From Planctomycetota bacterium (lineage in GTDB: Bacteria; Planctomycetota; Brocadiia; Brocadiales; Bathyanammoxibiaceae), in assembly GCA_016209685.1 (NCBI GenBank), contig JACQVQ010000006.1:3184-67183 (forward strand): a stretch of 64,000 nt of DNA, given 5' to 3'. The notes under the pieces are model-generated. The model worked only from the letters and a program-made list of their open reading frames with translations. It was not told the DNA's origin and did no database searches. This document shows, in pieces, positions 1 to 27,420 of this stretch (positions are counted from its first letter, which is position 1; every line of letters starts with the position of its first letter). The position numbers were made by a program, and so were the translations under genes.

Positions 1-1
1 G

Positions 2-295
2 GTGTTCAGCGGGGCCTTGCCATTTTACAACCCCGCGTCTCTGGCGGCAGAGGAGCTAGAAAAGGTTCATATGGACATAGAAGGTATGACCTGCGATGGT
101 TGTGCTGAAGAAATCAAGGCTAAACTGAGTGAACTGCCGGAAGTAGAGGAGGGCACTATCAGCTGGAAGAAGGGCACTGCGGATGTCAAAGTTAATAAAG
201 GTTCAGACCACAAGGCCCTTACTAAAGCCGTTGAAGATGCCGGGTTTAAGGTTACCTCTTTGGAATGTGAGTGCAAGGGCAAAGGCTCGAAGTAA
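2..295 (+). CDS. Heavy-metal-associated (HMA, MerP/CopZ-like) domain protein; 5' end outside the window
   Basis: The ORF is open to the window edge. It has a GMTCDGC metal-binding loop, an HMA-like remainder and a CECKGKGSK tail. It is a paralog of 488..835, and the pre-domain segment PFYNPASLAAEELE matches PFCTPASLAAEELE. Confidence 0.8.
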   Translation: MFSGALPFYNPASLAAEELEKVHMDIEGMTCDGCAEEIKAKLSELPEVEEGTISWKKGTADVKVNKGSDHKALTKAVEDAGFKVTSLECECKGKGSK

Positions 296-318
296 CATAA
301 ATACCTGGGCATGGGTAG

Positions 319-474
319 TCAAAGCTGTCTTGTCCCAGGTACCTTGGAGTAAAAGGGGACAATGTAAACTTGAAGAATGGCACCGCCCTGGTCAAGGTCA
401 AAAAAGGTTCAGCCCGCGGGGCTCTTGCGGCGGTTGTGGAAAACGCCGGTTTTACAGTCACATCTATAAAGTAA
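319..474 (+). pseudogene. Truncated HMA-domain remnant (C-terminal half only)
   Basis: Frame 1 reads ...LGVKGDNVNLKNGTALVKVKKGSARGALAAVVENAGFTVTSIK*, which aligns with the C-terminal half of both flanking HMA proteins. There is no GMTCxxC loop and no start codon, and an in-frame TAG sits at 316..318. Confidence 0.5.
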
Positions 475-487
475 AGGAGAAAGAGAG

Positions 488-835
488 ATGAAAACGGTTG
501 GAAAGGTATTGGTTCTTACCCTTGCAGTGTCACTGGTGGGAATGGTGTCTGGCGGGGTCCTGCCATTTTGCACCCCCGCATCCCTGGCGGCAGAGGAGCT
601 GGAACAGGTCCATATGAAGGTGAACGGTATGACCTGCGGTGCTTGTGCGGCCAAAATCAAGTCTAATCTGACCAAGCTACCTGAGGTAAAAGAGGCCGAC
701 GTAAACTCTAATAAGGGGACTGCAGATATTAGAGTTGCAAAAGGCTCAAACCACATGGCCCTTGCGAAAGCCGTGCAAGATGCAGGTTTTACAGTCTCCT
801 CCGTTGAGTGCGAATGTAATAAGGGCAAGAAATAG
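488..835 (+). CDS. Secreted HMA (MerP/CopZ-like) metal-binding protein
   Basis: The RBS aaaggaga lies upstream of the ATG. The N-terminal hydrophobic signal is VLVLTLAVSLVGMV. It has a GMTCGAC loop and a C-terminal CECNKGKK tail. Confidence 0.85.
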   Translation: MKTVGKVLVLTLAVSLVGMVSGGVLPFCTPASLAAEELEQVHMKVNGMTCGACAAKIKSNLTKLPEVKEADVNSNKGTADIRVAKGSNHMALAKAVQDAGFTVSSVECECNKGKK

Positions 836-840
836 CTTAA

Positions 841-938
841 ATATCCGGGCATGGGTAGCACCTCCAAAAGCACATTGCATCGCCTAACTTGTGGCTAGGC
901 ATGCTATCTTGATATACAGTGTTACCCATGCCTGATAT
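841..938. repeat. Long imperfect nested inverted repeat between the HMA gene and the DUF3179 gene
   Basis: ATATCCGGGCATGGGTA (841..857) pairs with TACCCATGCCTGATAT (923..938). An inner dyad is GCATCGCCTA / TAGGCATGC. The left arm AAATAYCYGGGCATGGGTAG also follows the first HMA gene at 299..318. Confidence 0.4.
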
Positions 939-975
939 TCCACGAGGCAGACTTTGTGAATGGGAGATGTAAAAA

Positions 976-2052
976 ATGCCTTTTGCCGCTGTAACAGTGT
1001 TGCTCACTTGCATCCTCGCATTCCCAGTCTGTTCCCAGGCCATCAGTATTGACCCCAAGGAGATATTATCTGTCGTACCTGAGGATGCCGTAAGGTCTAT
1101 AGACCACCCCAGATTTCTCCAACTGCCTGAGGCAGATGAGCAGATGTCGGATAAGGAGCCTGTCATAGGCATAAAGATAGGCAATGAAGCAAAGGCCTAT
1201 CCTGTTTACCTCCTTAGCGCCCACGAGATAGTCAACGACTCAATTGCTGGTACGGGCGTCGTTGTCACGTGGTGACCCCTCTGCTTTACTGGGGTGGTCT
1301 ACTCCAGAAATATAGACAGCGAAACGCTGGAGTTTGGAGTCTCAGGAAAGCTCTTATGGAATGCACTGCTCATGTTTGACCGCCAGACTCACTCCCTATG
1401 GACTCATATCACAGGGGAGGCCATATCCGGGAAGCTGAAGGGCAAGGCCTTAAAAGAGCTCCCTTCCACCCATACCACCTGGCAGGAGTGGAAAAAGGCG
1501 AACCCCACCACCCTTATATTGTCAAAGGACGATGGCAGTGGGAGGAGATACAATAAAGACCCTTACGAAGCCTATTACCAAGACCCATTAAAGATAGGGC
1601 TGACACCCCAAAAGCATCCGGACGTAAGAATACCCCCAAAGGATCAAGTGGTGGGAATCAAACTAGGAGAAGAGGCCAAAGCCTTTCCCTTTAGATACAT
1701 GGGCAATTTCTCAATAATTAATGACCGCCTTGGTGAGGTGAGAATCGTAGTAATCTACTCCAAAGGAAGAAAGACTGCCATAGTTTTTAATAGGACAGTA
1801 GATGGCAGGGACCTTTCCTTTGAGAAAGCGGAGGATGCTGGGGATTCCTATATGAGAGACAAAGAGACGAACACCCTATGGCTCGTCTTGACAGGTGAGG
1901 CGGTAGAGGGCGGACTCAAGGGCAAAAACCTTCAGCAAATACCCATCATGGTGTCGTTCTGGTTTGCCTGGATTGATTATTTTCCAGAGACAAAGGTCTT
2001 TCAAGACGCAGAACAATCCACACAAGATAACCTCCAAAACCTGGCAAGATGA
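976..2052 (+). CDS. DUF3179 family protein, predicted selenoprotein (in-frame UGA at 1273..1275 read as Sec)
   Basis: ORFs 976..1275 and 1294..2052 are in the same frame with no other stop between them. The joined sequence ...IAGTGVVVTW-U-PLCFTGVVYSRNIDSETLEFGVSGKLLWNALLMFDRQTHSLW puts UGA exactly where DUF3179 proteins carry the first Cys of their conserved CPLC motif. An N-terminal signal peptide is present and a hairpin follows the UGA. Confidence 0.8.
1289..1307 (+). promoter_or_regulatory. Candidate bacterial SECIS hairpin for UGA 1273
   Basis: CUGGGGU-GGUCU-ACUCCAG forms a 7-bp stem with a GGUCU loop, starting 13 nt after the UGA. As recalled, the loop resembles the E. coli fdhF SECIS apical loop. 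Confidence 0.55.
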
Positions 2053-2966
2053 AAGGAGCGGTCAGCGTGGAGCTATATATTAAGGTCCTTTTTGGTCTTT
2101 TTATTGTATTAAGTTGTGATGGAGTTGCCCTTGCTAGTGAGACAAGTTATGAAGAAATGCGTAGATTAACCCTCCTCTCCGACTCTTTGATACAGGAGAT
2201 TGAGGCATTGCGGGCAGAACTCAGGTTAGGAGGTGGGCTCCATCTTGAGACGGAGAGGGCTATTCAGAGTTGGGTTGATTGGGCTAGGTCAAACTTCAAT
2301 GCTGGCAACAAGCGGCTCGACCTATATAAGACCATAGATGTGCTGAGAGATAAGAAGCTGGCCCTAGAAAGGCTTCTTTCGGTACGAAATGGAACCATGG
2401 ACCTATCGGGGTTAATAGTAAGTGAGGAGGATATACTCCCTTATGAAGACCTTCATAACTTGCACATTGTCGATGGCATAATCTTGTCGGGGTCCCAACC
2501 TACAGAAAGCGGTTACAGATACCTCAAGAAAAAAGGTGTTACTACCGTGATAAACTGGCGAAGAGAGGATGACAGTGAGAAAAAAATGGTAACGGATTTA
2601 GGTCTCAAATATTATTATATCCCCATAACACCTGCCCATCCTCCTAGTGAAAAGCAGGTAGGAGAGTTTCTTCTAATAATTGAGGAGGTGCGGAGCAAGG
2701 GTGAAAAGTTGTATCATCACTGCTTGCATGGTGTGGGGAGATGTTTTACAGCGAACGCTGCTTATCTTATTATAAGCAGGGGAATGCCGGCAGAAGAGGC
2801 TATAAGGGAGGGCAAAAACCTGGCCAATTGCTGGCCTATAGAGCAAGAAGAAAAGTTGAAAGAGCAGGGGTTCCATTTGGGAGAATCTGGTTTATATTCC
2901 TTTACCCCCCAATTTGACTTCCTGCGTAACTTTGAGTTGTTGTTGTCTCGCAGAGGACTTCAATAA
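2049..2966 (+). CDS. Secreted or membrane-anchored protein with a C-terminal Cys-X5-Arg (PTP/DSP-fold) phosphatase-like domain
   Basis: The start overlaps the upstream stop (ATGA). The N-terminal hydrophobic segment is VLFGLFIVLSCDGVALA. The P-loop HCLHGVGRC fits the CX5R motif, preceded by GVTTVINWRRE...YYYIPI, typical of the tyrosine-phosphatase-like family. Confidence 0.6.
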   Translation: MKGAVSVELYIKVLFGLFIVLSCDGVALASETSYEEMRRLTLLSDSLIQEIEALRAELRLGGGLHLETERAIQSWVDWARSNFNAGNKRLDLYKTIDVLRDKKLALERLLSVRNGTMDLSGLIVSEEDILPYEDLHNLHIVDGIILSGSQPTESGYRYLKKKGVTTVINWRREDDSEKKMVTDLGLKYYYIPITPAHPPSEKQVGEFLLIIEEVRSKGEKLYHHCLHGVGRCFTANAAYLIISRGMPAEEAIREGKNLANCWPIEQEEKLKEQGFHLGESGLYSFTPQFDFLRNFELLLSRRGLQ

Positions 2967-3011
2967 GATCCTGTAGGTCTGAGTCTTATAAAATTTTTTT
3001 ACTGGCGCGCC

Positions 3012-5480
3012 ATGATATCAAGCCCAATAAAAGAGACCTCCATCCTTTACTCGCCTGATTACCATCGCTACAGCGTTGATAATTTAGCAATTCTACTTGA
3101 CCAGGAAGGCCCTAACTGGATAGGCGCCGATGCCCGTGGGGCAGAGATAATTGGCCTTCTTGATGGTAAAACCCCTTTAGGGGAGGTCGTCAGAACTTAT
3201 TCCTCAAGATACACGATGGAGAGCCCAAAGGCTTGGCTCCACGTCTATTCTTTTATAAGAGATGCCCTCAGACATCAGTTTGTATCTACTCAGCCTTTTC
3301 AAAGGGATAGTTACCCAGGCAGAGGTGCCTTCCTCTCTCTGAACGGGCTAAAAGAATTGTGGATTCATACCAACAACTCATGCAACCTTAGGTGCGCCCA
3401 TTGCCTGGTGGAGTCTTCTTCCTCCGGTGAATATGGGCTTTCTACTAGTGAACTGGCAGAGTTAATCCACCAGGCCAAGTCCCTGGGCGTTTCTCAGTTC
3501 TATTTCACAGGAGGAGAGCCTTTCCTAAGACCGGACCTCTTTCAGCTCTGCTCTTTCGCCATTGCCGGGGGGTCCAATGTAACCATTCTCACTAATGGTA
3601 CATTGATAAACAAAGAGACAGTAAAATGGCTAAATGCCCTTCCCCCAGGCTCAGTCAGGTTGCAGATAAGCCTGGACGGTTCTAAACCAGAGGTCAATGA
3701 CCCTATAAGGGGAAGGGGTAGCTTTGAAAGCATCCTTAGAGGCATCGGGGAGGCAGTACACGCAGGTCTTAGTCCCACTGTGGCTACAGTGCTTCTGCCA
3801 GAAAATTTGCATGACCTGCCAGAACTGCCAAGACTGCTCCACAATCTTGGTGTAACCACACATCACCTCCTTTACCCCCACCGAAGAGGGCGGGCCCTTC
3901 AAGCCCTGGGACAGCCCTCCATTGCGGAGCTGACAGAGGCCATATTTAGGGCAAGGGCGATGGCTTCGGAGTTAGGCCTAAGCATAGACAATTTTTCAGT
4001 CCTGGCTGACCGCCTCCATGCACCAAGATTTACCCAATTTGATTTAAGTACTGCCTGCTGGGATAGTCTCTGCGTCTATTCAAATGGAGAGGTTTATCCC
4101 TCCGCTGTATTCGCCGGCCATAAGGCCCTCTGTTGCGGCAATATAAGAGAGCGTTCGCTAGAGGAAATATGGCGCAGCAGTCCTACCTGTCAACTGGTAC
4201 GTTCTGCCACACTTCAGGATAAGTCCCACTGTCGGGCCTGTACTATTAAGTTCCTCTGTGGCGGTGGGGACATAGAATACGCCTACTTCGCCTCCCAGGC
4301 CAATCTCTTGGGTTTAGACCCTTACTGTGAGCTTTATAAAGAGATAATCTTCTGCCTGCTAAAGGAGTGGGTACAGGAGGCCCAAAGGAATTTAAATAGT
4401 GGTTCAAACCTCGATGCCCCCAGGGTCTATCTTGGTATGGGGGAGGGGGGTTTTTGCTGCCCGGAAGAAGCCACTCAGGCTGACGGGCCCTGGGTAAGGA
4501 CCATCCGCACTAATTGTACGGCCGGGCTGGATCGGGGACTCAAGCGCCAGGGACTACAGCAGTTCTATGCCCAGGCAGCAAAGCAACCTCAACAGGAACT
4601 CTGTTGCCCCTCCGCTTATCCCCCTGAGGAGACCCAACATGTCCCGCAGGAAGCCATAGAGAGGTTCTATGGATGTGGTGGCCCCCTGACCCTGGCGGGG
4701 TTGAGTCCGGGCGAGACCGTGCTTGACCTCGGCTCGGGAGCAGGCATGGATTGCTTTCTGGCCGCAAAAAAGGTGGGCCCTAATGGAAGGGTTTTCGGCC
4801 TGGACATGACGGATACCATGCTCCAGATATCTATGGAATACAAAGGCAAGGTCTCAGACAACTTGGGCTATGATGTAGTAAGGTTTATAAAGGGCTTCTT
4901 GGAGGAAATACCCTTTCGCTCAAGCTCGGCGGACCTGGTGATTTCCAACTGTGTAACAAACCTTTCTGCAGATAAAAGGAAGGTGTTTTCGGAGATATGG
5001 CGAGTGCTGAAAGACCAGGGCCGCTTTGTTATCTCAGACATTGTCTCAGAGACGGAGGTCCCCACCCGTTTTCGCTCCGACAAGCTCCTCTGGGGGCAAT
5101 GTCTGGCAGGGGCCCTTACGGAAGAAGAATTCCTCTGCTATCTTGAACAGGCGGGCTTCCGTGGCATTGAGATATTACATAGGCGCTACTGGAAGACGCT
5201 GGAGGGTTGCAGCTTTTTCTCCATTACCCTTCGTGGGTACAAACTTCAAGGGGCTGAACAGTGCTCCTACGATGGGCATGCGGCCATGTACTGTGGTCCC
5301 TTTAAGGCCGTGCTGGATGAAGAGGGCCACCTCTTCCCAAGGGGGGAAGCCGTTGAGGTGTGTACGGATACCGCAGAAAGACTCCAGAGGCCCCCTTATT
5401 CAAGGGCCTTTGTCATTTGCAGAACTGAACAACCTGAGGGCCCCCCCGCCAATTGTCATTCTCAGGAAAAGTGTTGCTAG
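3012..5480 (+). CDS. Fusion protein: PqqD/RRE-like N-domain + radical SAM core + SPASM domain + ArsM/AS3MT-type SAM-dependent As(III) methyltransferase domain
   Basis: A single 822-aa ORF with these motifs:
- PqqD-like: [34 protein letters not shown].
- Radical SAM: CNLRCAHC.
- SPASM: [14 protein letters not shown] plus a later DPYC.
- ArsM hallmarks: [43 protein letters not shown]. These match the human AS3MT motifs YYGCG, LDLGSGSGRDC, VVSNCVINL and LWGECLGGAL. Confidence 0.85.
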
Positions 5481-5667
5481 GTTTGTCATGGGTATAGTGT
5501 AAGAATGGTAAGGTCCTTTTCGCCAAGGCGGCGCCTATGGCGGTGGCCTGCGCAGGGGGCACGTTGTCCGCCTCAGGTTGAAAATCCGCCATCCCTTCGG
5601 TTTCGCTCAGGACAAGCTTTTGGGCGGGCGGATGCCCCGACACCTTAAAAAGAGAGGAGATATCCAG

Positions 5668-6156
5668 ATGCGCAACCTGTTTTCTGCCCTTTGTGTTTCG
5701 GTCCTTCTTTTATCGCTTTTTCTATCAGCTCCAGTGGAAGGACAAGAGGTTAAGACAATCGGTCTTAAGGAGTTTAATGCCCTTCTGGCAGCCAGCAAGG
5801 GAAAGGTAGTGGTTCTGGACTTCTGGGCTACTTTCTGACCCTCCTGCCGGAGGGCGGTGCCCTTCCTAAACCAGATGTACGAGACGTACAAAGGCCAAGG
5901 TTTTGAAATAATTGCCCTTTCCATAGAGGGAAGTAACGTAGAGGGAGTAAGAGCCTTTTCAAAGAAGGCAGGGATAAAGTATCCCGTCTTTATGGCAGAA
6001 GTAGACCTTCTGGAGAAGTACGGTATCCAGTACATCCCTCACCACGTCTTTATAGACAAGAAGGGGACACAGAGGCACGAAGAGACGGGCTTTTCTGAGG
6101 CAGGCGGGACGGCGTTTGAGACGAGGATTAAGGAGTTACTGAAGGAAGGTGGTTGA
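5668..6156 (+). CDS. Secreted TlpA/ResA-like thioredoxin-fold protein, predicted selenoprotein (UGA 5836..5838 as Sec; U-P-S-C redox motif)
   Basis: The RBS agaggaga lies before the ATG at 5668. The signal peptide is MRNLFSALCVSVLLLSLFLSAPVEG. ORFs 5578..5838 and 5857..6156 share a frame. The joined sequence VVVLDFWATF-U-PSCRRAVPFLNQMY matches the FWATWCPPC region of TlpA-like proteins, with UGA at the first Cys. Confidence 0.8.
5849..5865 (+). promoter_or_regulatory. Candidate SECIS hairpin for UGA 5836
   Basis: GGAGGGC-GGU-GCCCUUC forms a 7-bp stem (one G-U pair) with a GGU loop, starting 10 nt after the UGA. It is identical in the paralog at 9626..9642. Confidence 0.6.
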
Positions 6157-6184
6157 TTTTTTGTATTGTATAGGGAAGGGATAG

Positions 6185-6799
6185 ATGACTCTGGCAAAGA
6201 ACCTCTTAATATTTGTCAAGTATCCCACCCCAGGAAAGGTCAAGACCCGCCTGGGTAGGGCGCTTGGCCCTGAGACAGCGGCCAGTCTCTACCGCAGTAT
6301 GGCAGAGGGTATCATAAAAAGATTGGCCCCGCTAACACGTCACTACTTTGATACCACCATCTTTTATCACCCTCCAGAGAAGGCCTTAGGGTTCAATGCC
6401 TGGTTAGGGCCAGACCTTTCCTACGCCCCCCAACAAGGCAAAGATTTGGGAGAGAGGATGTACAATGCCTTCTTGGCTACCTACCCAAGCCGGACGGTGC
6501 TTATAGGGAGTGATTGTCCGGAAATTACTGTAGAGATAATCCTCCAGGCCTTTCAAGCCCTTGAAAGTTATGATGCAGTCATTGGCCCGGCTATAGACGG
6601 CGGGTATTACCTCATAGGTCTTTCCCATCCTAGGGCTGAGCTATTTCAGGGCGTAGATTGGGGCACCGAAAAGGTCTTTCATCAAACCACCCAAAAGGTG
6701 CAAGCACTTCAACTTTCCTGCCACATTCTACCAACCCTGAGAGATGTAGACGCCCCGGAGGACATTCATGTCTTTTTACCATATCTAACAAGTGGGTGA
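6185..6799 (+). CDS. DUF2064 / TIGR04282-like nucleotidyl- or glycosyltransferase-fold protein (the family annotated as arsenosugar-biosynthesis associated)
   Basis: The N-terminus LLIFVKYPTPGKVKTRLGRALGPETAASLY and the later GSDCPEIT...VIGPAIDGGYYLIGL...VDWGTEKV match my memory of the DUF2064 consensus. Confidence 0.7.
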   Translation: MTLAKNLLIFVKYPTPGKVKTRLGRALGPETAASLYRSMAEGIIKRLAPLTRHYFDTTIFYHPPEKALGFNAWLGPDLSYAPQQGKDLGERMYNAFLATYPSRTVLIGSDCPEITVEIILQAFQALESYDAVIGPAIDGGYYLIGLSHPRAELFQGVDWGTEKVFHQTTQKVQALQLSCHILPTLRDVDAPEDIHVFLPYLTSG

Positions 6800-6897
6800 A
6801 ATTTCAGGCTAACAGGTTTCGAAGGAGTGGGCACGGAAACAGGTGCTATGGGTAGAAATACGCAAAATAGCTTAACATATACAACAATAAGAAACTG

Positions 6898-7728
6898 ATG
6901 TTCACATCTATAAGAATATTTCTAGTTATAACAATACTGCTTCTTTCCCTACCTTCAGAGCAGACATTGGCTCAATACAATGGACGATACGCTTCTAGAT
7001 ATCCTGAAGATTTTTTCAACCCTGGTGGCACAGAGGTAAACTTTAACCCCTCAATACACCAAAAAATAGGCATATTAATACAGAATCGCACTAGACTCTC
7101 GCTTTCTGAGATTGCCCACATGATATTCAAAACCGCCCCCCTTGACCGTTATAAGCGGTTTTTCTACCTTCGTATTGAGGAGGAATTCAGGGAGGATATT
7201 GCAAACAACACTATTCTTTCCACTAGGGCCTATGACTATAGCGGTAGAGCAATACCTAGGGGACTGCCTCTCTCAGAAGGACAGGGCTCTTTCAACCTGG
7301 TCTTTCTCCGGTTCAGTTTGAGGGAGGTGATCCGTTGCAGTTGCAAGGGAGTAACCATTCAAACCAACCAGGGCAATTTCGCCTATGTCGGAGAGGATTC
7401 TATACTGCACGAGGTCGGACACGCTTTTGCAGGGCTTGCTGATGAATACTCCGACCCCCGTGCAAGTGATTTTACTGCGGTAAATCTTGAAGACAGGCAT
7501 GCCCATAAGCTGAAATGGAGTGGACTGATAGAAAAGGGGTTCCTCCCCAATAGAAAGATTGAAAGAAGGGAGATAGTGGGTGGTATAGACAGAGGGAGGT
7601 TCTTGATACCCTCAAACAATTGTTACATGAACAACCATCAAAATGATGACCGCTACTGTCCGGTATGCCAGCTTGCTATAATTAGTAGGATTTCTCAATT
7701 GTCCGGTGTAACTCCTCCATGGCAATAA
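6898..7728 (+). CDS. Secreted HExxH protein with a peptidase M64-like motif
   Basis: The signal peptide is IFLVITILLLSLPSEQTLA. The motif HEVGHAFAGLADEY resembles the HExGHsFggLaDEY signature of M64 (IgA-peptidase-like) proteins. It has a C-terminal CPVCQ. At 276 aa it is shorter than typical M64 enzymes. Confidence 0.5.
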   Translation: MFTSIRIFLVITILLLSLPSEQTLAQYNGRYASRYPEDFFNPGGTEVNFNPSIHQKIGILIQNRTRLSLSEIAHMIFKTAPLDRYKRFFYLRIEEEFREDIANNTILSTRAYDYSGRAIPRGLPLSEGQGSFNLVFLRFSLREVIRCSCKGVTIQTNQGNFAYVGEDSILHEVGHAFAGLADEYSDPRASDFTAVNLEDRHAHKLKWSGLIEKGFLPNRKIERREIVGGIDRGRFLIPSNNCYMNNHQNDDRYCPVCQLAIISRISQLSGVTPPWQ

Positions 7729-7740
7729 GTACTTAGTTTA

Positions 7741-8556
7741 ATGGGAGATATGAGAGTGCACATAAACATCCTTCATTCACTGTTTATCTTTTTAGTATTT
7801 TACTTTTGGTCGTTAACGGCGCCCTGTGAGGGGCAGGAAACAGGTCTCAAAGGAGTGAACATGGATGTTGGATATGAGTTATACGGCCAGGTATTGCAGA
7901 AATACGTGAAAGATGGCACGGTGGCTTATCTGGCCCTAAGGGCTTCTCCCGAAGAACTGGATAAATACCTGTCCTGGTTAGCCCATACAGACCCAGATGC
8001 ACTAGGAACCACCGAGGAAAGACTGTCCTTCTGGATTAACGCCTACAATGCCTTTGTCCTTAAGGGAGTTTTAGACACCCTTCCTGAAAGACCTGCGGAC
8101 ATGGCAGGTTATAGTGTCAAGAAGGTTAAGGGCTTTTTTACTCATAGAAAATTTGTAGTGGGTGGAAGGTCTTATTCACTAGACGATATAGAAAACGATG
8201 TCCTCAGGAGTATGTTTAAAGACCCACGAGTGCACTTTTCCATAGTATGTGCCTCCGAGAGTTGCCCGGTACTGCAAAGCAAGGCCTTCCGTGCTGGGGA
8301 TATCCAAAGCCGTCTAGATGAGGCGACAAAGAGGTTCTTTGCTAGCGAAAACAGATTCAAAATAGACCGCGAAAATAAAGTAGTCTACCTCTCGCCGATA
8401 TTCCGATGGTTTAAGAAAGATTTTGAACAGGCCAAAGGGTCTCTTTACGACTTTATTGCAGACTATCTGGAGAACGAGGAAGACAGGGCCTTCATCAAAA
8501 AGGGAGACTTTACAATAGAGTATCTGGAGTACGACTGGAGCCTGAATATCAGATAG
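7741..8556 (+). CDS. DUF547 domain protein (secreted)
   Basis: FWINAYNAFVL ... VVGGRSYSLDDIENDVLR ... DPRVHFSIVCASESCPVL matches the DUF547 consensus as recalled. An N-terminal hydrophobic signal is present. Confidence 0.75.
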   Translation: MGDMRVHINILHSLFIFLVFYFWSLTAPCEGQETGLKGVNMDVGYELYGQVLQKYVKDGTVAYLALRASPEELDKYLSWLAHTDPDALGTTEERLSFWINAYNAFVLKGVLDTLPERPADMAGYSVKKVKGFFTHRKFVVGGRSYSLDDIENDVLRSMFKDPRVHFSIVCASESCPVLQSKAFRAGDIQSRLDEATKRFFASENRFKIDRENKVVYLSPIFRWFKKDFEQAKGSLYDFIADYLENEEDRAFIKKGDFTIEYLEYDWSLNIR

Positions 8557-8681
8557 AGACACCAGAAGAGATGCAGACAATTAAAATTATATTACTATGT
8601 ACTGCCCACTCTACTAGACTGAAGAAGTCCCTGAGGACCTATATGCCCTCTGGCCCGATACGATAAAGGAGCTAGATTTAC

Positions 8682-9383
8682 GTGGCTAAAGATAATGCCG
8701 CTTCTCGGATACCAAAGGTCTCCATAATCATTCCTACATTACAGGAAGAAAATACAATAGAAAAGACACTCCTCAACCTAAGGAAGCAGGGGAATAGCCA
8801 TGAGGTCACTGTTGTGGATGGCGGCAGCACTGACTCTACCGTGGATATAGCCAGCCGTTATGCCAGGGTGATTAAAGGGCCGCCGGGTCGGGCCAGGCAG
8901 ATGAACCTGGGGGCCAGCCACGCCAGGGGAAAGATATTATTATTTCTCCATGCCGATACCATACTGCCTGAGGGGGCTGTAGACAAGGTTTGTAAAGCAA
9001 TCCAGCGGCCGGGGATAGTCGGTGGCTGTTTCAGCCTGGCATTTGACCCCCCTCACTCATTCCTTTGTTTCATTAGCCTCTTTACACACCTGCACTGGTG
9101 GTGGGTTCCATATGGAGACCAGGCATTCTTTGCTACTGCTGAGGCCTTTAACACCCTAGGGGGCTACCGGGACCTGGCAATAATGGAAGATATGGAGTTC
9201 TTCAAGAGACTTAAGAATTTAGGTAAGGTGTGTATTATCCAAGACCCAGTTATAACCTCCTCCAGGAGATTCTTAAAAAAGGGTGTATATAGACAGACTC
9301 TTCTTAACCTACTAATTTATTTAGGTTATTTATGCGGGCTAAAAGCGGATAGGTTCAAAAAGTGGTACGGAACTGTTAGATAA
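8682..9383 (+). CDS. Family-2 glycosyltransferase, TIGR04283-like (the family annotated as arsenosugar-biosynthesis associated)
   Basis: GTG start. Motifs VSIIIPTLQEENTI, VTVVDGGSTDSTV, GRARQMNLGA, LLFLHADTILP, YGDQAFF and IMEDMEF fit the GT2 / TIGR04283 pattern as recalled. Confidence 0.7.
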   Translation: MAKDNAASRIPKVSIIIPTLQEENTIEKTLLNLRKQGNSHEVTVVDGGSTDSTVDIASRYARVIKGPPGRARQMNLGASHARGKILLFLHADTILPEGAVDKVCKAIQRPGIVGGCFSLAFDPPHSFLCFISLFTHLHWWWVPYGDQAFFATAEAFNTLGGYRDLAIMEDMEFFKRLKNLGKVCIIQDPVITSSRRFLKKGVYRQTLLNLLIYLGYLCGLKADRFKKWYGTVR

Positions 9384-9444
9384 AAGCCTATGCTACGGCA
9401 GACTTAAACTTTTTGCTTTTTTAACTCCAGAAAGGAGGCTCAAA

Positions 9445-9927
9445 ATGCGCCACTTGCCTTCTGTCGTTTGGGTTCCGATACTTTTTTTCTTGCTTTCTCT
9501 GTTAGCTCAAGTAGAGGGGCAAGAAGTTAAGACTATAAACCTTAGGGCCTTAAACGACCTGCTGGGGGACAGACAAGGTAAAGTAGTGGTACTGGACTTC
9601 TGGTTCACTCGCTGACCCCACTGCCGGAGGGCGGTGCCCTTCCTTAACCAGATGTACGATACTTACAAAAACCAGGGCCTTGAGCTAATTGGACTTTCTA
9701 TAGATGAAGATGTAGAGGCCGTTAGGAGCTTTTTAAAAAAGGTGGAGATAAAGTACCCCGTCGTCGTTGCAGATCTGGACATTTCAGAGGAGTATGGAAT
9801 ACAGTTTGTACCGCATCATGTTTTTATAGATAGACAAGGCAAAAAGAGGGCTGAGGAGACAGGTTTTTCTGAGGAGGGGAAGGTAGAGTTCGAAACAAAG
9901 GTAAGGGAGTTACTAAAGGAAAGGTAA
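9445..9927 (+). CDS. Second secreted TlpA-like thioredoxin-fold selenoprotein (UGA 9613..9615 as Sec; U-P-H-C)
   Basis: The RBS aaaggagg lies before the ATG at 9445. I translated 9445..9612 by hand and found no stops: MRHLPSVVWVPILFFLLSLLAQVEGQEVKTINLRALNDLLGDRQGKVVVLDFWFTR. This is followed by UGA and then PHCRRAVPFLNQMY... in frame with ORF 9634..9927. It is a paralog of 5668..6156. Confidence 0.8.
9626..9642 (+). promoter_or_regulatory. Candidate SECIS hairpin for UGA 9613
   Basis: The same 17-nt hairpin, GGAGGGCGGUGCCCUUC, as at 5849..5865. It starts 10 nt after the UGA. Confidence 0.6.
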
Positions 9928-9974
9928 TCTTTCTGTAGAGTAAAAATGGGCGGTTATAATTAAACCTTCAGCTC

Positions 9975-10187
9975 TTGTTGCTAATGAGCTTTTCTCGGCC
10001 TTTGAAAGTTTGTGAGACTCACGAAGCTGATAAAGAGACGGGAACACTTTGGTTAGCCTTGGCCAGTGAAGCAATGGAGGGTAAGCTTGCAGCTAATGTC
10101 CTACGGCAAATACCCAGCATGATGGCCTTTTGGTTTGCCTGGGCGGATTATTTTCCAGAGACAAAGGTCTTTCAAGACGGAGGATAG
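9975..10187 (+). pseudogene. C-terminal fragment of a second DUF3179 gene
   Basis: DKETGTLWLALASEAMEGKLAANVLRQIPSMMAFWFAWADYFPETKVFQDGG aligns with the last ~55 residues of 976..2052 (DKETNTLWLVLTGEAVEGGLKGKNLQQIPIMVSFWFAWIDYFPETKVFQD). The upstream ~280 residues of the domain are absent. Confidence 0.6.
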
Positions 10188-10479
10188 AGTCTAAAACGTT
10201 TTCTGCCGAGGCTTAGGCTATTCTTGCCGAGAAGGCCTCCTTATCTTGTGGCTTTTAAACTCTTCCAAGTGCCTTCTACCGCAAAAGCCACTATTGAGTC
10301 CTTTACAGCACGAGGAGGCATCCCTTCGGCACATCTCGTCCACAAATCACGAGTAATGCACCCAGGGCTCACTCCCACTACTGTAACTTTTTATTATTTT
10401 GGAGCTTAAAACGGTTTCTTTACCGCTTGAACATGGAAACATAATGTGCTACTTTAACCTCGGAAAAGGGAGACTTCAA

Positions 10480-11889
10480 ATGTCATGTACCACAAAGTTG
10501 GTGTCGGCTTCACCCGCCATTAAAAAGATTATAATACCTTTGGCAGTATTTGGCATCGCTATCCTTGTATTGGATTTTTCATGGCCTGTTTTGGCTGCCG
10601 AAGATGTCGGGGCGATAAAAGAAAAGGCCAAATTCACTACTATTATGGACAAGTATGGGCTACCGCTTGCCATACTGTTTTCCTTCTGGTGGGGATTGCT
10701 TGCCAATATAGGCTCAGCCTGCATCTATCCCATGGTGCCTATTACTATCGGCTACTTTGCCAGTCAGGCAGAGACCCACGGGAAGGGATATACGGTGCTC
10801 CTCGCCTGGATGTTCGTCCTGGGGATAGCAACCCTTTACGCCCCTCTGGGGGTGCTTTCTGCCCTGGCAGGGAGGGATGTGGGTGCCTTACTGGGGAATC
10901 CCTTCTTCATCGGACCCTTTGTGGCCTTTCTCGTGGCCATGGCCCTCAGTATGTTCGGGCTATTTGAGATAAGGCTACCCGTCTTTCTTATGGACCGCTT
11001 CCATTCAGGGGGAAAGAAGACGGGAATTATTGGCACCTTTCTTATGGGCATGATCCTGGGTTTTGTGGCGGCGCCTTGTGTGGGTCCCTTTGCGGGTTCT
11101 ATCCTGGCCTTCGTGGCCACCACAGGTAATATCTTTGTGGGCCTGGCCAGTCTGTTCTTTTTTTCCCTGGGGCTGGGTATGCCTTATCTAGTGCTAGCTA
11201 TATCAGCCAAGAGCCTTGCCAGCCTGCCCAAGGCCGGGGAGTGGATAAACCGCATCAAACAATTTGCTGGGCTTGTACTCCTGCTGGTGGCCGTTTACTT
11301 CTTGAGCTTCATCATCCCCAAAGACGTTTCCTTCTTGCTGGCAGGAACGCTGGTACTTTTTATGGGTGTGTTTCTTGGCACACTGTCCTGGAGGGAGGCA
11401 TCTACTCCGGCCCTCTTCGGAAGAGGTGTTGGAATCCTGATAGGGGTTTGTGGTATTATGTTGTTCCTGCTCGGGCTACTGGGCCTCACGGGGCTATCGG
11501 GAAAATTGCCCATGACCCAGGCCCCGGGTGTACGAGCGGAGATTAAATGGGTGCCCTCCTTTGAGGAGGGTATGCGACTGGCAGGGGAGCAGGGCAGGCC
11601 AGTGTTTATAGACTTCTTTGCGGATTGGTGCCTCCCCTGCAAGGAGATGGAGGCCAATACCTGGAGGGACGAACGGGTCATAAAGGAATCGGAAAGGTTC
11701 GTTGCCATTAAAATGGACTCCTCCAAAGATGACAGTCCCGGCTCAAGGCTTAAGATAGAAAAATTCAATTCTTTTTATATACCCTACGTAGCCTTCTACG
11801 ACGCTAAAGGGAGCTATCTTGAGGGTAGGTCCATAGAAGGTTACGCAGACGCCGATACAATGCTTAAAGTAATGCAGACAATCCATTAA
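10480..11889 (+). CDS. DsbD-like thiol:disulfide electron conduit (CcdA-type membrane domain + C-terminal thioredoxin domain)
   Basis: The multi-TM core carries the two conserved Cys motifs (ACIYPMVP and APCVGPF). The C-terminal Trx domain has FADWCLPC. I prefer the ATG at 10480 (RBS aagggaga) over the maximal ORF start at 10399. No DsbD-alpha domain is visible. Confidence 0.8.
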   Translation: MSCTTKLVSASPAIKKIIIPLAVFGIAILVLDFSWPVLAAEDVGAIKEKAKFTTIMDKYGLPLAILFSFWWGLLANIGSACIYPMVPITIGYFASQAETHGKGYTVLLAWMFVLGIATLYAPLGVLSALAGRDVGALLGNPFFIGPFVAFLVAMALSMFGLFEIRLPVFLMDRFHSGGKKTGIIGTFLMGMILGFVAAPCVGPFAGSILAFVATTGNIFVGLASLFFFSLGLGMPYLVLAISAKSLASLPKAGEWINRIKQFAGLVLLLVAVYFLSFIIPKDVSFLLAGTLVLFMGVFLGTLSWREASTPALFGRGVGILIGVCGIMLFLLGLLGLTGLSGKLPMTQAPGVRAEIKWVPSFEEGMRLAGEQGRPVFIDFFADWCLPCKEMEANTWRDERVIKESERFVAIKMDSSKDDSPGSRLKIEKFNSFYIPYVAFYDAKGSYLEGRSIEGYADADTMLKVMQTIH

Positions 11890-11890
11890 C

Positions 11891-11982
11891 AAGGTTACAG
11901 GGAACGGGGCACAGGATACAGGGAAAAAGATTTTTACCTGTTCCCTGTTCTCTGTTCCCTGCTTCCTGTTTCCTGTTACCTT
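11891..11982. repeat. Tandem-unit hairpin (ACAGGRA units / complementary TCCTGTT units)
   Basis: AAGGTTACAGG...ACAGGATACAGGGAAAAAGATTTTTACCTGTTCCCTGTTCTCTGTTCCCTG...CCTGTTACCTT. The outer ends are complementary. It lies directly after the DsbD-like stop codon. Confidence 0.75.
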
Positions 11983-11999
11983 AAATTAAGGAGGGGAAG

Positions 12000-12326
12000 A
12001 TGGCCGAAATATTAGGGGTTACCGACGCTAACTTTAAGACAGAGGTTCTAGAGTCTCCCTCACCGGTGCTTGTAGATTTCTGGGCCACCTGGTGCGCCCC
12101 CTGCAAGCAGATGGCCGAGATACTTGATGGCCTGGTGCCGATATATAAGGGCAAGGTAAAGATGGTCAAGCTCAACGTGGATGAGGGGACCAAGGTCGCC
12201 GCCCAGTACGGCATAACGGCCATCCCCACCCTGATATTCTTTAAGGGAGGCAAGGAGGCCGGGCGGATGGTAGGCGTAGTCTCCAGGCAGAAGCTGGAGG
12301 AGAAACTCAAAGGGCTTGCTGGCTAA
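12000..12326 (+). CDS. trxA: Thioredoxin
   Basis: 108 aa. VLVDFWATWCAPCK active site, PTLIFFKGG, typical length, RBS aaggagggg. Confidence 0.9.
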   Translation: MAEILGVTDANFKTEVLESPSPVLVDFWATWCAPCKQMAEILDGLVPIYKGKVKMVKLNVDEGTKVAAQYGITAIPTLIFFKGGKEAGRMVGVVSRQKLEEKLKGLAG

Positions 12327-12955
12327 TGAAAAACTGCATTGCAAATTGTAAATTGCAGATTTTAAATTTCAAATTTTCAATTTGCATTTTACAATTAATT
12401 GTTTTCCTGGGCCTCCCTTCCCAGGCCCAGGCGGTGTGGAAGGAACTGACCCCCAAGCAATTCCTGGAGGCCATGGAATACGGTCAGAAAGAAAAAGACA
12501 AGGCTATGGTGGACTTTGCCAGGGAATGGACGGTGAACCTCGGGGAGCAGGTAGGCTGGGCCACGCTTTACACCCCGTTTCACAGCCTGGCCTACAAGGC
12601 CCGCAAGGCGGCCGTAGAGCACCGCGAATTAACGGAAAAGGAGATTAAGAAGGCCCTGGGGGACGGAGAGACGCTGACCTTCTCGGCCACTATCCTGTGC
12701 GATGCCCTTTACTACACACGCCAAAGACCGTCCACCCTGCATCAGGGAGAAAAGGTTGTGGCCTCCTCTTATGAGTTCCTCCCCGACGTCTGCGAGAACA
12801 GCAACTTTTTCCCGGAGTCCCCGGCCTACATGGCCTCTTGTGTGTATAGGTTCCCCCACAAAGACCTCTCTCTGGAAGCCCCCATAACCCTGGTGATAAT
12901 TACGCCTACTGGAGAGGAACGCCTCTTCCCCTTTGACCTGTCCGGGATACGCTAA
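12326..12955 (+). CDS. Hypothetical secreted protein
   Basis: A long ORF with coding-like composition. The signal-like segment ILQLIVFLGLPSQAQA is partly encoded by the hairpin repeat. The start is uncertain (ATG 12326 or TTG 12353). I recognised no family. Confidence 0.5.
   Translation: MKNCIANCKLQILNFKFSICILQLIVFLGLPSQAQAVWKELTPKQFLEAMEYGQKEKDKAMVDFAREWTVNLGEQVGWATLYTPFHSLAYKARKAAVEHRELTEKEIKKALGDGETLTFSATILCDALYYTRQRPSTLHQGEKVVASSYEFLPDVCENSNFFPESPAYMASCVYRFPHKDLSLEAPITLVIITPTGEERLFPFDLSGIR
12334..12396. repeat. Tandem-unit hairpin (TTGCAAA/TTGTAAA units)
   Basis: GCATTGCAAATTGTAAATTGCAGATTTTAAATTTCAAATTTTCAATTTGCATTTTACAATT. It lies just after the trxA stop and overlaps the 5' end of ORF 12326. 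Confidence 0.7.
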
Positions 12956-13655: not shown

Positions 13656-13768
13656 AACCGTTCTGGTACAGGGCTAGCCAAATGGCACAGGAATTATACC
13701 CTTTTACCAGGGACTAGTCAAAGTGTGGTTGTTGTCAGCAGGTGGTTAGCAATCGCCAAAATTTTAAT

Positions 13769-13797
13769 GTTGGGGCGAGCCGCCGTCTCGCCCCTAC
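13769..13797. repeat. GTWGGGGC...GCCCCTAC palindrome (variant core)
   Basis: GTTGGGGCGAGCCGCCGTCTCGCCCCTAC. Confidence 0.6.
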
Positions 13798-14091
13798 TGC
13801 CCTGGTCCGCCCCCGCACCAACATGTCCTAAGCAATGGAAACCAAAGGGCTTACGAAGCACAACAAATCCCCTTTTCCCTAACAAGTATCACTTGCTTTT
13901 ATTATGTAAACCAGTATAATAGATTTGTTAAATTTTTCCTCACCGGCCGCACGGCAAGACGTGTTTCGTTGGCTAACAGGTCCTGGGGAAAGGAGGCACT
14001 AAACAAGGTGACGGGGCCATGCCCGACAAAGGTTTCTGTGCCTGCCCTTAAAAAAGATACTCAATCCGCTTTTGTAAAGGTACAAGTGGCC

Positions 14092-14106
14092 TCCGCCTCA
14101 GGCGGA
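14092..14106. repeat. TCCGCC-N3-GGCGGA palindrome
   Basis: TCCGCCTCAGGCGGA, 12 nt upstream of the glnA start. Confidence 0.8.
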
Positions 14107-14117
14107 CTATCTAAGAC

Positions 14118-15530
14118 ATGCAAATAAAAGAAGTTATTGAACTCTGCCGGCAGAAAGACATAAAGGTTATTGACCTGCGCTTTTCGGACCTCCTGGGTAA
14201 ATGGCACCACTTCTCCATCCCCACCAGGGAACTCACCGAAAAGGTCTTTGAGGAGGGCCTGGGTTTTGATGGGTCCAGCATACGGGGCTGGGTGCCTATT
14301 CATATGAGCGACCTCGTAGCAGTCCCTGTCCCTGAGACGGCCATGACGGACCCCTTTCTGGACGCATCCACCCTGATACTGCTCTGCGAGATACTGGAGC
14401 CTATACCCAAAAAAAATTACACGCGGGACCCCAGATATATTGCACGCAAGGCGGAGACCTACCTCAAATCTACGGGCATCGCCGACACGTCCTACTTCGG
14501 CCCCGAGGCGGAGTTCTTCATCTTTGACAGTATCCGCTTTGACCAGCAACCCCATCACGCCTATTACTACATAGAATCCTCCGAGGGTAATTGGAACACA
14601 GGTCAGGATGAACGCCCCAACCTGGGCTACAAGATCGCCTTCAAAGAGGGATACTTCCCCGTACCTCCCAGTGACACCCTCCAGAACGTCCGCTCGGAGA
14701 TGATGCTCATCATGGAGAAGTGCAACATCAAGATAGAGAGACAGCACCACGAGGTGGCCACCGCAGGGCAGGGCGAGATAAACTTCCAGTACGACACCCT
14801 GGTAAGGGCGGCAGACACGCTCCAGTTATACAAATACATAGTGAAAAACACTGCAAGGAAGTACAACAAGACCGTTACCTTCATGCCCAAACCCATTATA
14901 GGAGATAACGGCTCAGGGATGCACACCCACTTCTCCTTATGGAAGGGCGGCAAGCCCCTCTTTGCCGGGAACGGTTATGCGGGCCTGAGCGAGATGGCCC
15001 GTCATGCCATCGGCGGCCTGCTCTACCACGCAAAGGCCCTCACTGCCTTCACCAACCCCACCACTAACTCTTACAAACGCCTGGCCCCCGGCCACGAGGC
15101 CCCCATAAACCTGGCCTATTCCTCCAGGAACCGCAGCGCCGCCATCCGTATACCTATGTACAGCAACAGCCCCAAGGCCGCCAGGATAGAGTTCCGTTGC
15201 CCGGACCCTTGCTGCAACCCCTATATCTCTTTCGCGGCCATCCTCATGGCCGCCCTGGATGGCATACAGAATAAAATAGACCCAGGGGAACCCCTGGACA
15301 AGGATATCTACGACCTGCCACCGGAAGAGCTGGCAAGAATCCCCTCTACCCCGGATTCCCTGGCAAGCGCTTTGGATGAACTAGAGGCAAACCACGAGTT
15401 CCTCCTGAAAGGGGACGTCTTCACCCAGGATGTCGTTGAGACCTGGATTTCCTATAAAAGGATGAATGAAGTAGAACCCGTACGGCTCCACCCTCACCCT
15501 TACGAATTCGCCCTTTATTATGACGCATGA
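14118..15530 (+). CDS. glnA: Glutamine synthetase, type I
   Basis: 470 aa. It has the GS-I beta-grasp N-terminus and the motifs GSGMHTHFSLW, NSYKRL and SNSPKAARIEFRCPD. The adenylylation-site-like sequence DIYDLPPEE is present. Confidence 0.95.
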   Translation: MQIKEVIELCRQKDIKVIDLRFSDLLGKWHHFSIPTRELTEKVFEEGLGFDGSSIRGWVPIHMSDLVAVPVPETAMTDPFLDASTLILLCEILEPIPKKNYTRDPRYIARKAETYLKSTGIADTSYFGPEAEFFIFDSIRFDQQPHHAYYYIESSEGNWNTGQDERPNLGYKIAFKEGYFPVPPSDTLQNVRSEMMLIMEKCNIKIERQHHEVATAGQGEINFQYDTLVRAADTLQLYKYIVKNTARKYNKTVTFMPKPIIGDNGSGMHTHFSLWKGGKPLFAGNGYAGLSEMARHAIGGLLYHAKALTAFTNPTTNSYKRLAPGHEAPINLAYSSRNRSAAIRIPMYSNSPKAARIEFRCPDPCCNPYISFAAILMAALDGIQNKIDPGEPLDKDIYDLPPEELARIPSTPDSLASALDELEANHEFLLKGDVFTQDVVETWISYKRMNEVEPVRLHPHPYEFALYYDA

Positions 15531-15590
15531 GCCGACAAGAATTTTTTTCAGCCGGGGCGCTCCATTGAACGCCCTACGTAAAAAAGAAGT

Positions 15591-19368: not shown

Positions 19369-19378
19369 GGGTTTAGAC

Positions 19379-20710: not shown

Positions 20711-20981
20711 TACTTTGTTCTTTCTCTGTTGCTTTTCTGTTCTTTCTCTGTCTCCTTTTTTTCTCCCTCTTCTCTCTTTTGTCTCTTTAGGATGTCTTGT
20801 AGCTAGCGGAGGAGCACCTTCTGCCGTTTTTCTAACACACTCTTTCCATTATTAACTCAATAGTTGCACGTGACTTGGGACAAAAACGAAACAAGATTTC
20901 AACATCCCTGGGCTGCCTTAGGGTTAAGAATTAGGTAAAAAGAAACCAAAACTAAATATAAGAAGAGAGAGGATAACAACC
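20711..20981. other. dnaA-dnaN intergenic region; candidate oriC or part of it
   Basis: This is the only sizeable non-coding DNA adjacent to dnaA, since the upstream gene abuts dnaA. It contains a pyrimidine tract and an A+T-rich 3' part (aagaattaggtaaaaagaaaccaaaactaaatataagaag). I could not confirm consensus DnaA boxes by eye. Confidence 0.3.
20713..20788. repeat. Strand-asymmetric polypyrimidine tract with an internal 13-nt direct repeat
   Basis: By hand count, the 76 nt on the + strand contain 70 C/T, 6 G and 0 A. GTTCTTTCTCTGT occurs at 20717..20729 and 20739..20751. Confidence 0.85.

Positions 20982-22088: not shown

Positions 22089-27420
<5,332 letters not shown>

Follow-up and report, generated by a model that had tools for sequence, protein, structure and literature searches.

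A Radical SAM–SPASM/ArsM Fusion Protein of Uncultured Bacteria as a Candidate Bifunctional Organoarsenical Synthase

Introduction

A stretch of 64,000 nucleotides from a Planctomycetota bacterium (Bathyanammoxibiaceae; assembly GCA_016209685.1, contig JACQVQ010000006.1, positions 3,184 to 67,183 of the forward strand), hereafter the window, carries a gene whose product joins a PqqD/RRE-like domain, a radical S-adenosylmethionine (SAM) core, a SPASM-type domain and an ArsM-type arsenite methyltransferase in one polypeptide. What does such a fusion protein do? In the Synechocystis type of arsenosugar pathway, the As(III) methyltransferase ArsM is paired with a separate radical SAM enzyme, ArsS (TIGR04167). 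ArsS adds a 5'-deoxyadenosyl radical to trivalent dimethylarsenic (DMAs(III)), giving 5'-deoxy-5'-dimethylarsinoyl-adenosine in a redox-neutral reaction in which the arsenic-centred radical gives an electron back to a cluster (PMC13598754). ArsL and ArsM form a second tandem of this kind, with a Cys-rich tail that binds As(III) (bioRxiv 10.1101/2024.02.01.577332). In the literature covered, ArsS and ArsL are the radical SAM routes to C-As bonds that have been described (PMC13598754; bioRxiv 10.1101/2024.02.01.577332).

The original prediction, made from the letters of the window, proposed that the fusion couples arsenic methylation with radical chemistry on one scaffold, and it raised a peptide or protein substrate as an alternative. 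Following it up, we arrived with modest confidence at the view that the fusion is, on balance, a bifunctional organoarsenical synthase that does the work of both ArsM and ArsS in an arsenosugar-type pathway.

Architecture and Conservation of the Fusion Protein

The gene is a single uninterrupted open reading frame (ORF) of 822 codons, as predicted, with no internal stop codon over its whole length (Table 1). Pfam matched the proposed module order (RRE-like, radical SAM, SPASM, ArsM), and every motif that had been quoted was found in the protein. An AlphaFold model of the 822-aa chain, built on an alignment of the family, reached a mean predicted local distance difference test (pLDDT) value of 85.8 and a predicted template modelling (pTM) score of 0.82, and its low-confidence parts were confined to residues 1–3, the loops bearing C483 and C502, and the CC tail. 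Conservation was counted and Cys columns were tallied in an alignment of 49 family members. The invariant cysteines are C124, C128, C131, C354, C483, C502, C531-C532, C555, C647, C697, C751, C784 and the terminal pair C821-C822.

A PqqD/RRE domain had been placed at residues ~25–95, and the predicted fold bears this out: residues 17–87 adopt the beta3-alpha3 topology of an RRE, at pLDDT values above 90. The Pfam PqqD profile matched 25 of the 49 members (best E 2.3e-7), while the fusion of the window fell just below its gathering score (residues 27–90; E 3.7e-4, 21.2 bits versus 23.4). With D30, P34, N35, W36 and G43 invariant, the domain is too conserved to be vestigial. SuiB and TigE each have an N-terminal RRE, and the N-terminal half of the fusion aligned with their entire chains across 465–478 columns (Foldseek).

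The radical SAM core was recognised by Pfam at residues 121–274 (Radical_SAM, 2.6e-25, 90 bits versus 29.5) and appeared in the model as an alternating beta/alpha core. The expected motif CNLRCAHC is present; its cysteines C124, C128 and C131 are invariant in the 49 sequences, as are G167, G168 and E169.

The SPASM claim held in part. Pfam SPASM matched residues 349–411 above its gathering score (6.6e-9, 36.4 bits versus 21.5), and alignment to anSME and CteB showed that the ligands of the second auxiliary cluster (AuxII) are kept, with C407, C410, C416 and C439 corresponding to anSME positions 317, 320, 326 and 348. In the anSME structure these positions ligate AuxII, and their numbers match those of the aligned anSME chain. 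Of the four canonical ligands of the first cluster (AuxI), three are replaced, namely by F343, S364 and the invariant D420, so that the supposed fourth Cys of the motif is D420 and the supposed 'Gx4C' Cys is S364. Since AuxII is kept and AuxI is not, the domain is SPASM-like with a non-canonical first auxiliary site. Family-specific cysteines lie near this site instead: C354 (49/49), C375 (42/49) and C349 (35/49). The NCBIfam matches of the N-terminal half were SPASM enzymes, all below their cutoffs (MftC, 145 bits; AhbD, 133 bits; StsB; NirJ2), and Foldseek retrieved SkfB, SuiB, TigE (478 columns, TMt 0.74), anSME (TMt 0.77) and PqqE (TMt 0.73) from the PDB.

In the linker, pLDDT dropped below 50 at residues 482–492 and 507–510, and the loops of C483 and C502 are probably flexible, judging by the model. 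The segment GGFCCPEE had been singled out as Cys-rich; C483 is conserved, but C482 is not.

The C-terminal module had been described as a complete ArsM of ~230 residues. It does hold all four As-binding cysteines in aligned positions, but its length is ~315 residues (~508–822). Pfam recognised a class I methyltransferase (Methyltransf_31, residues 565–715, 1.8e-31), and searches of the PDB with the last 322 residues returned CmArsM (E 6.7e-44), CrArsM (6.5e-40) and human AS3MT (7e-39). Taking the catalytic tetrad Cys44/72/174/224 of CmArsM as reference, C555, C647 and C697 align with Cys72, Cys174 and Cys224, and C531 is the counterpart of the first conserved Cys in CrArsM. All four positions (C531-C532, C555, C647, C697) are invariant in the 49 sequences. 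Foldseek ranks 1–13 for the C-terminal half were without exception ArsM/AS3MT structures (E 1.9e-22 to 1.9e-19). The best NCBIfam models for this half were all arsenite methyltransferases; among them the arsinothricin model methyl_ArsM scored 216.8 bits (cutoff 500), with an alignment reaching residue 822. Among the 25 best of 114 families at E<=0.1 (NCBIfam release 20), no model reached its curated cutoff with the fusion. By these profile scores, the ArsM-type module is divergent and lies outside every curated model.

Distribution and Integrity of the Gene

A search of 5.8 billion clustered proteins recovered more than 120 full-length homologues of 818–877 aa, with 45–92% identity and 97–100% query coverage, from NCBI, JGI, ENA and Logan assemblies. 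The nearest named relative, a partial sequence with 78% identity, comes from Candidatus Hypogeohydataceae (class Brocadiia). When one genome per species was scanned, an intact fusion turned up at no fewer than 80 loci in ~15 phyla, every one of them in a metagenome-assembled genome. Represented are Brocadiales/Scalindua, Thermodesulfobacteriota, Dadabacteria, Nitrospirota, Nitrospinota, Acidobacteriota (many Vicinamibacterales), Gemmatimonadota, Elusimicrobia, Omnitrophota, Latescibacterota and Wallbacteria, among others. Of 84 fusion loci that were fetched, 78 have an intact full-length ORF in the fusion cluster.

This distribution bears on whether a sequencing or assembly error might have merged two neighbouring genes, a reading to which we give practically no weight. 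The more than 120 full-length homologues are independent and stem from four collections, the 80 genome loci span ~15 phyla, and there are invariant residues within the interdomain linker. Furthermore, a query with the junction only (residues 430–560) recovered the same junction at ~430–580 in proteins of 820–850 aa, with 26 representatives at E<=1e-10 that each stand for one 50%-identity cluster. No evidence in favour of a split gene or an assembly artefact was found, and it was rejected.

Two irregularities were also followed up and set aside. Matches of 3.1–3.4 kb in L022, L063, L074, L075 and L078 (locus numbers of this study) had suggested inteins or insertions and proved to be unrelated extra high-scoring segment pairs joined on. 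An incomplete radical SAM ORF in L123, which shares 39% identity with a segment of the N-terminal half and might have been one piece of a divided fusion, belongs to a short Rv1681-like protein.

The claim that the architecture was undescribed agrees with the absence of any NCBIfam model reaching its cutoff, with the generic public names of the homologues (the most specific are 'methyltransferase domain-containing protein' and 'radical SAM protein with 4Fe4S-binding SPASM domain') and with full-text literature searches, in which no description of it was found.

The Fusion and ArsS in Arsenosugar-Type Gene Clusters

Every gene in 976..9927 of the window lies on the + strand, in the order of Table 1 from DUF3179 to the second TlpA-like gene. 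TIGR04282, TIGR04283 and DUF547 follow the fusion within 4 kb and in the same orientation, and the first two share the NCBIfam name 'arsenosugar biosynthesis glycosyltransferase'. For the 84 fusion loci, which come from many phyla, ORFs were called and clustered, and profiles were built for recurrent neighbours. Flanks of at least 5 kb on either side were available for 39 loci, of which 26 contain at least one of PiT, DUF547, GT-C, TIGR04282 and TIGR04283.

Conversely, metagenomes were scanned with TIGR04283 as seed (a four-sequence alignment; a nine-sequence one was too divergent and was dropped), and the radical SAM genes nearby were inspected. An ArsS profile was built from five ArsS sequences, which score 362–460 bits on TIGR04167 (cutoff 300). 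True ArsS was identified by this profile in nine TIGR04283-seeded loci (340–618 bits), among them the five with the TIGR04167 scores just given. Several of the seeded loci also carry a stand-alone ArsM; in L147 it is directly upstream of ArsS. L128 encodes an arsenosugar-specific ArsM (559 bits, cutoff 400) in the order DedA, MerA-like flavoprotein, AsSugarArsM, DedA, ArsS, TIGR04283, GT-C, DUF547, TIGR04282. DUF547 is present in both of these ArsS-type clusters.

The fusion occurred in none of the TIGR04283-seeded loci, and ArsS was found by its profile in none of the 84 fusion loci, where the profile matched only the fusion's own core (27–65 bits), MoaA or Tes-like genes. Within the 64-kb window, ArsS (TIGR04167) was likewise not found elsewhere, AhbC being the only other radical SAM gene. 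The fusion and ArsS are thus mutually exclusive in the sampled neighbourhoods. Consequently, with an accessory set common to both types of cluster and ArsS absent from one of them, the fusion takes the position of ArsM plus ArsS.

A more distant relative joins these elements physically. P0213 (948 aa, cut by a contig end) carries radical SAM, ArsM and TIGR04283 glycosyltransferase modules on one chain; it is 33% identical to the fusion of the window over 811 residues, and the glycosyltransferase that follows its terminal CC is 42% identical to the TIGR04283 copy of the window. Three AuxII cysteines are missing from P0213, and a GGGD motif is kept. This triple fusion is a Rosetta-stone link between the fusion type and TIGR04283.

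Proposed Function and Alternative Readings

For a bifunctional synthase we infer the following course of reaction. The ArsM module would bind As(III) on its four conserved cysteines and methylate it with SAM to di- (or mono-) methyl As(III). The methylated As(III) would then be handed over to the radical SAM site, possibly via C483/C502 and/or C821-C822; for the linker cysteines this would mean a part in arsenic binding or relay. At the [4Fe-4S]/SAM site, a 5'-deoxyadenosyl radical would add to the arsenic, with the altered AuxI site perhaps holding the arsenical and the AuxII cluster taking up an electron from the As-centred radical. The expected product is 5'-deoxy-5'-dimethylarsinoyl-adenosine or a close analogue, which TIGR04282, TIGR04283 and DUF547, and elsewhere GT-C, DedA and PiT/PHO4, might process, attach or export. 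The predicted coupling of an ArsM module to radical SAM chemistry on one chain is supported, at the level of sequence and gene order, by the arsenosugar-type context, by the absence of ArsS from the 84 loci and by P0213.

Several points weigh against this assignment, the case for which was assembled entirely from comparative genomics. The chemistry of ArsS cannot be taken for granted, because the radical SAM half fits no ArsS model outside the core common to all radical SAM enzymes: TIGR04167 is not among its 25 best of 114 NCBIfam families (E<=0.1), and the fusion reaches 48.7 bits on the ArsS profile, compared with over 340 for genuine ArsS. Hydrogen abstraction, not addition of the adenosyl radical to a substrate, is the usual chemistry of SPASM enzymes. 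The ArsM module stays below the cutoffs of both PRK11873 (234.2 bits, cutoff 263) and the arsenosugar-specific AsSugarArsM (137.7 bits, cutoff 400). In about one third of the well-flanked fusion loci there is no accessory gene within 10 kb, the putative functions of TIGR04282 and TIGR04283 are assigned by association, and the mutual exclusion with ArsS applies to gene neighbourhoods, not whole genomes. The strongly conserved RRE-like domain is left unexplained by the proposed course of reaction.

The most serious rival keeps the pathway and the role of ArsM and gives the radical SAM half a chemistry other than that of ArsS, a possibility we hold to be unlikely yet deserving of attention. The enzyme might abstract hydrogen from a carbon of a sugar, lipid or nucleotide and then form the C-As bond at an AuxI site remodelled for this purpose; it might transfer a 3-amino-3-carboxypropyl group as ArsL does; or it might tailor an arsenical at a later stage. 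The SPASM/twitch group to which its best matches belong (MftC, AhbD, StsB, NirJ2, BlsE, CteB, anSME) abstracts hydrogen, and the replacements F343, S364 and D420, together with C354, C375 and C349 in their stead, suggest a re-purposed substrate site. Sactisynthases, which make C-S bonds, offer an analogy for C-As coupling at the AuxI site. Neighbours of a membrane or lipid type (GT-C, DedA and, in Vicinamibacterales, a Tes-like radical SAM protein) would also fit. However, a different product would not predict the same accessory set as in ArsS clusters, the fusion has neither the RCCLKC tail of ArsL nor a B12-like domain, and no candidate acceptor was identified. More speculatively, and with a shade more doubt, the SPASM half may be a metalloid-inserting radical SAM enzyme whose AuxI site (C349/C354/C375, D420) holds the methylated arsenical near SAM, while the RRE-like domain docks a peptide, a protein or the enzyme's own Cys-tipped tail, and a substrate carbon or adenosyl radical couples to the arsenic. 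This would amount to a second, independently evolved C-As route, possibly leading to an undescribed lipid- or glycan-linked organoarsenical and distributed over relatives of anammox bacteria, Nitrospirota, Vicinamibacterales and many candidate phyla.

Two further readings, both of which we consider very improbable, change the substrate. In one, the fusion is a maturase of ribosomally synthesized and post-translationally modified peptides (RiPPs): the RRE would bring in a peptide for cross-linking or other modification by the SPASM module and for methylation by the methyltransferase, and the likeness to ArsM would reflect a thiol-rich active site instead of arsenic. The N-terminal fold is indeed RRE-like, its residues are strongly conserved, and the nearest structural matches of the N-terminal half are the peptide maturases SkfB, SuiB, TigE and CteB. 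A RiPP role is nevertheless unlikely, since no precursor-peptide gene is conserved nearby: when the 322 small ORFs within 2 kb of 78 fusion genes were clustered, only pairs from near-identical sister genomes grouped together. In the window, the gaps flanking the fusion (45 bp upstream, ~150–190 bp downstream) leave no room for such a gene. The four As-binding cysteines and the ArsM-specific C-terminal domain are invariant, and the neighbours are arsenosugar-cluster genes, not the proteases or transporters of RiPP clusters. The peptide substrate raised in the original prediction therefore has the fold on its side but not the 78 loci. In the other reading, with about the same low probability, the substrate is another metalloid or chalcogen (Se, Sb or Te), and a seleno- or stibo-sugar or such a lipid would be the product of the cluster. 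Many probable selenoproteins and thiol-redox proteins are encoded around the gene in the window, selenoproteins make up several of the ArsM-like NCBIfam families, and there are relatives fused to an MbdU-like metal-binding domain. On the other hand, the Cys tetrad is characteristic of As(III) methyltransferases for which As-bound structures have been solved, selenoprotein neighbours are uninformative on the substrate, and the enzyme that the fusion stands in for, ArsS, has DMAs(III) as its substrate (PMC13598754).

Comparison with Known Systems

The ArsM + ArsS pair resembles the fusion in combining an As(III) methyltransferase with a radical SAM enzyme, in its accessory genes (TIGR04282, TIGR04283, DUF547, GT-C, DedA and a MerA-like flavoprotein) and in having extra conserved cysteines outside the cluster motifs. 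In contrast, the fusion is one polypeptide instead of two, its radical SAM part is of the RRE and SPASM type with auxiliary-cluster ligands and no DUF3641 tail, and its ArsM part falls outside the AsSugarArsM subtype (138 versus 400 bits). Arsinothricin synthesis likewise uses a radical SAM enzyme and an ArsM in tandem, for C-As bond formation and arsenic methylation; As(III) is bound there by a Cys-rich segment, and the fusion's ArsM module scores 217 bits on the corresponding ArsM model. However, the fusion's 25 best NCBIfam families do not include ArsL (NF040542), the RCCLKC motif is absent, and the gene context is arsenosugar-type, not arsQML.

With the SuiB, CteB, TigE, SkfB and MftC/PqqE systems the fusion shares the order RRE, radical SAM, SPASM, the retained AuxII ligands and a structural match over the whole module (TigE TMt 0.74, anSME 0.77). 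Unlike them, it carries a complete ArsM, has its AuxI ligands largely replaced and has no precursor gene conserved nearby, and its NCBIfam scores are far below the family cutoffs. ArsM/AS3MT enzymes (CmArsM 4FR0, CrArsM 5EVJ, human AS3MT 8XT7) agree in fold, SAM motif, the four cysteines and the C-terminal domain, while the module of the fusion has ~32–34% identity to them and comes after an N-terminal radical SAM part of ~500 residues. A Cys-rich tail closes human AS3MT, and the last two residues of the fusion are likewise Cys.

Components and pathway have been described before. What appears to be new is the fusion itself, and a SPASM-type module, unrelated to ArsS beyond the radical SAM core, in the place of ArsS. 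If the assignment as a bifunctional synthase is correct, the fusion would be a third solution to C-As bond formation, on a different radical SAM scaffold joined to the methyltransferase that feeds it, and many uncultured bacteria may make C-As bonds by a second, unrelated way. The capacity for arsenosugars or arsenolipids would then reach well past cyanobacteria and algae and would be relevant to arsenic cycling in groundwater and sediments. At least 80 species-level genomes contain the fusion, and their lineages are for the most part uncultured and in many cases anaerobic or from the subsurface. Gene surveys would improve, because pipelines call the fusion only 'methyltransferase domain-containing protein'. 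A single chain that performs both nucleophilic and radical SAM reactions on one and the same arsenic atom would be attractive for studies of substrate hand-over, and it might allow the function of a SPASM domain to be studied without the involvement of a peptide.

Genes of the Window and Recurrent Neighbours

Table 1. Modules of the fusion protein and genes around it, with positions in the window.
Feature	Position	Strand	Remarks
DUF3179 gene	976..2052	+	In-frame TGA 1273-1275 (TW-U-PLC); recurrent in Brocadiales and Scalindua loci
DSP/PTP-type phosphatase	2049..2966	+	Upstream of fusion
Fusion gene	3012..5480	+	822 codons, ATG to TAG; RRE-like, radical SAM, SPASM and ArsM modules in one chain
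PqqD/RRE-like winged-helix domain	3054..3281	+	~Residues 15-90; Pfam PqqD, predicted fold
Radical SAM core	3348..4031	+	~Residues 113-340; C124-x3-C128-x2-C131, GGE motif F165-T-G-G-E169
SPASM-type domain	4032..4391	+	~Residues 341-460; Pfam SPASM, alignment to anSME and CteB
Linker	4392..4532	+	Invariant C483 and C502 (49/49) in low-confidence loops
ArsM/AS3MT module	4533..5477	+	~Residues 508-822: N-helix, C531-C532, C555, DLGSGAG, C647, C697, C-terminal domain, C821-C822
TlpA/ResA-like protein	~5632/5668..6156	+	In-frame TGA 5836-5838 (WATF-U-PSC)
TIGR04282 (DUF2064)	6185..6799	+	206.3 bits, cutoff 134
HExxH (M64-like) protein	6898..7728	+	HEVGH zinc-protease-type motif; weak Pfam Peptidase_M64 match
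DUF547 protein	7741..8556	+	Pfam DUF547 2.9e-26
TIGR04283 GT2	8682..9383	+	242.2 bits, cutoff 182
Second TlpA-like gene	~9445..9927	+	In-frame TGA 9613-9615 (WFTR-U-PHC)

The commonest neighbour in the 84 fusion loci is a PiT/PHO4-type transporter (24 loci), usually directly adjacent and on the same strand, followed by TIGR04283 (21), DUF547 and TlpA-like proteins (20 each), TIGR04282 (19), the Tes-like radical SAM protein (18, mostly Vicinamibacterales), an MptA/B-like GT-C (17), the MerA-like flavoprotein (12), DUF3179 (10) and DedA (9). The PiT/PHO4 phosphate (or sulfate) permease is also the commonest immediate neighbour (e.g. L002, L003/L004, L013-L015), at a median distance of 78 bp in the 23 members of a stricter cluster. 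The window lacks it, and among 80 TIGR04283-seeded loci it was found in one. It may take up arsenate or connect the cluster with phosphate starvation.

In Vicinamibacterales, the Tes-like radical SAM gene (695 aa; 307 bits, cutoff 450) stands ~1–4 kb downstream of the fusion and is consistently linked to it and to DUF547, GT-C and TIGR04283 (L026, L031, L043, L046, L052, L070 at 13731..15815 and other loci of this order). This neighbour hints at a membrane-lipid connection, such as an arsenolipid or a branched tetraether.

Other candidate partners did not hold up. A nucleosidase for an adenine-removing step, PNP_UDP_1 beside a Zixibacteria homologue, was confined to that lineage and occurred in no ArsS locus. 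The phosphatase upstream of the fusion in the window is not conserved with it, and homologues of the HExxH protein (70–73% identity) adjoin the fusion only in L006 and L020 (Brocadiales/Scalinduaceae).

Among the more distant relatives, P0216, P0198, P0140 and P0163 (980–1079 aa) combine radical SAM and ArsM with a C-terminal DUF5714, an MbdU-like metal-binding domain. In P0149 (792 aa), only an ArsM-type module and DUF5714 were detected.

Additional Observations in the Window

Three neighbours of the fusion, DUF3179 and the two paralogous TlpA/ResA-like genes, have an in-frame TGA exactly where their relatives have the first Cys of a CxxC motif, and all three probably encode selenoproteins on this sequence pattern. 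Both families are already listed as selenoprotein families (PMC13188914). A hairpin resembling a selenocysteine insertion sequence downstream of the TGA was significant for one of the three genes, DUF3179 (z = -2.98). The two TlpA paralogues have UGCCGGAGGGCGGUGCCCUUCCU in common, beginning 9 nt past the UGA. No tRNA-Sec was found within the window.

Genes for thiol and metal handling surround the arsenic genes. Two HMA (MxCxxC) metal-binding proteins with ECEC-rich tails are encoded at 2..295 and 488..835 (+), the latter with a hydrophobic, signal-peptide-like N-terminus; a DsbD/TsoB-like protein lies at 10399..11889, and a thioredoxin-like ORF with a WCAPC motif at 12000..12326. Scans of 1..12500 for promoters and terminators gave scores no better than those of shuffled sequences and are for that reason uninformative on operon limits.

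The AhbC gene at 51130..52332 (+), the only other radical SAM/SPASM gene of the window, encodes 12,18-didecarboxysiroheme deacetylase (736 bits, cutoff 650), which marks haem synthesis by the alternative route via siroheme. Otherwise the window consists of chromosomal core genes, with dnaA, dnaN, gyrB, gyrA, glnA, glnD, dxr, secDF and groEL. Since dnaA, dnaN, gyrB and gyrA follow one another at 19322..22085 and 22202..27417, ~14 kb from the fusion, the window probably spans the region of the chromosomal replication origin.

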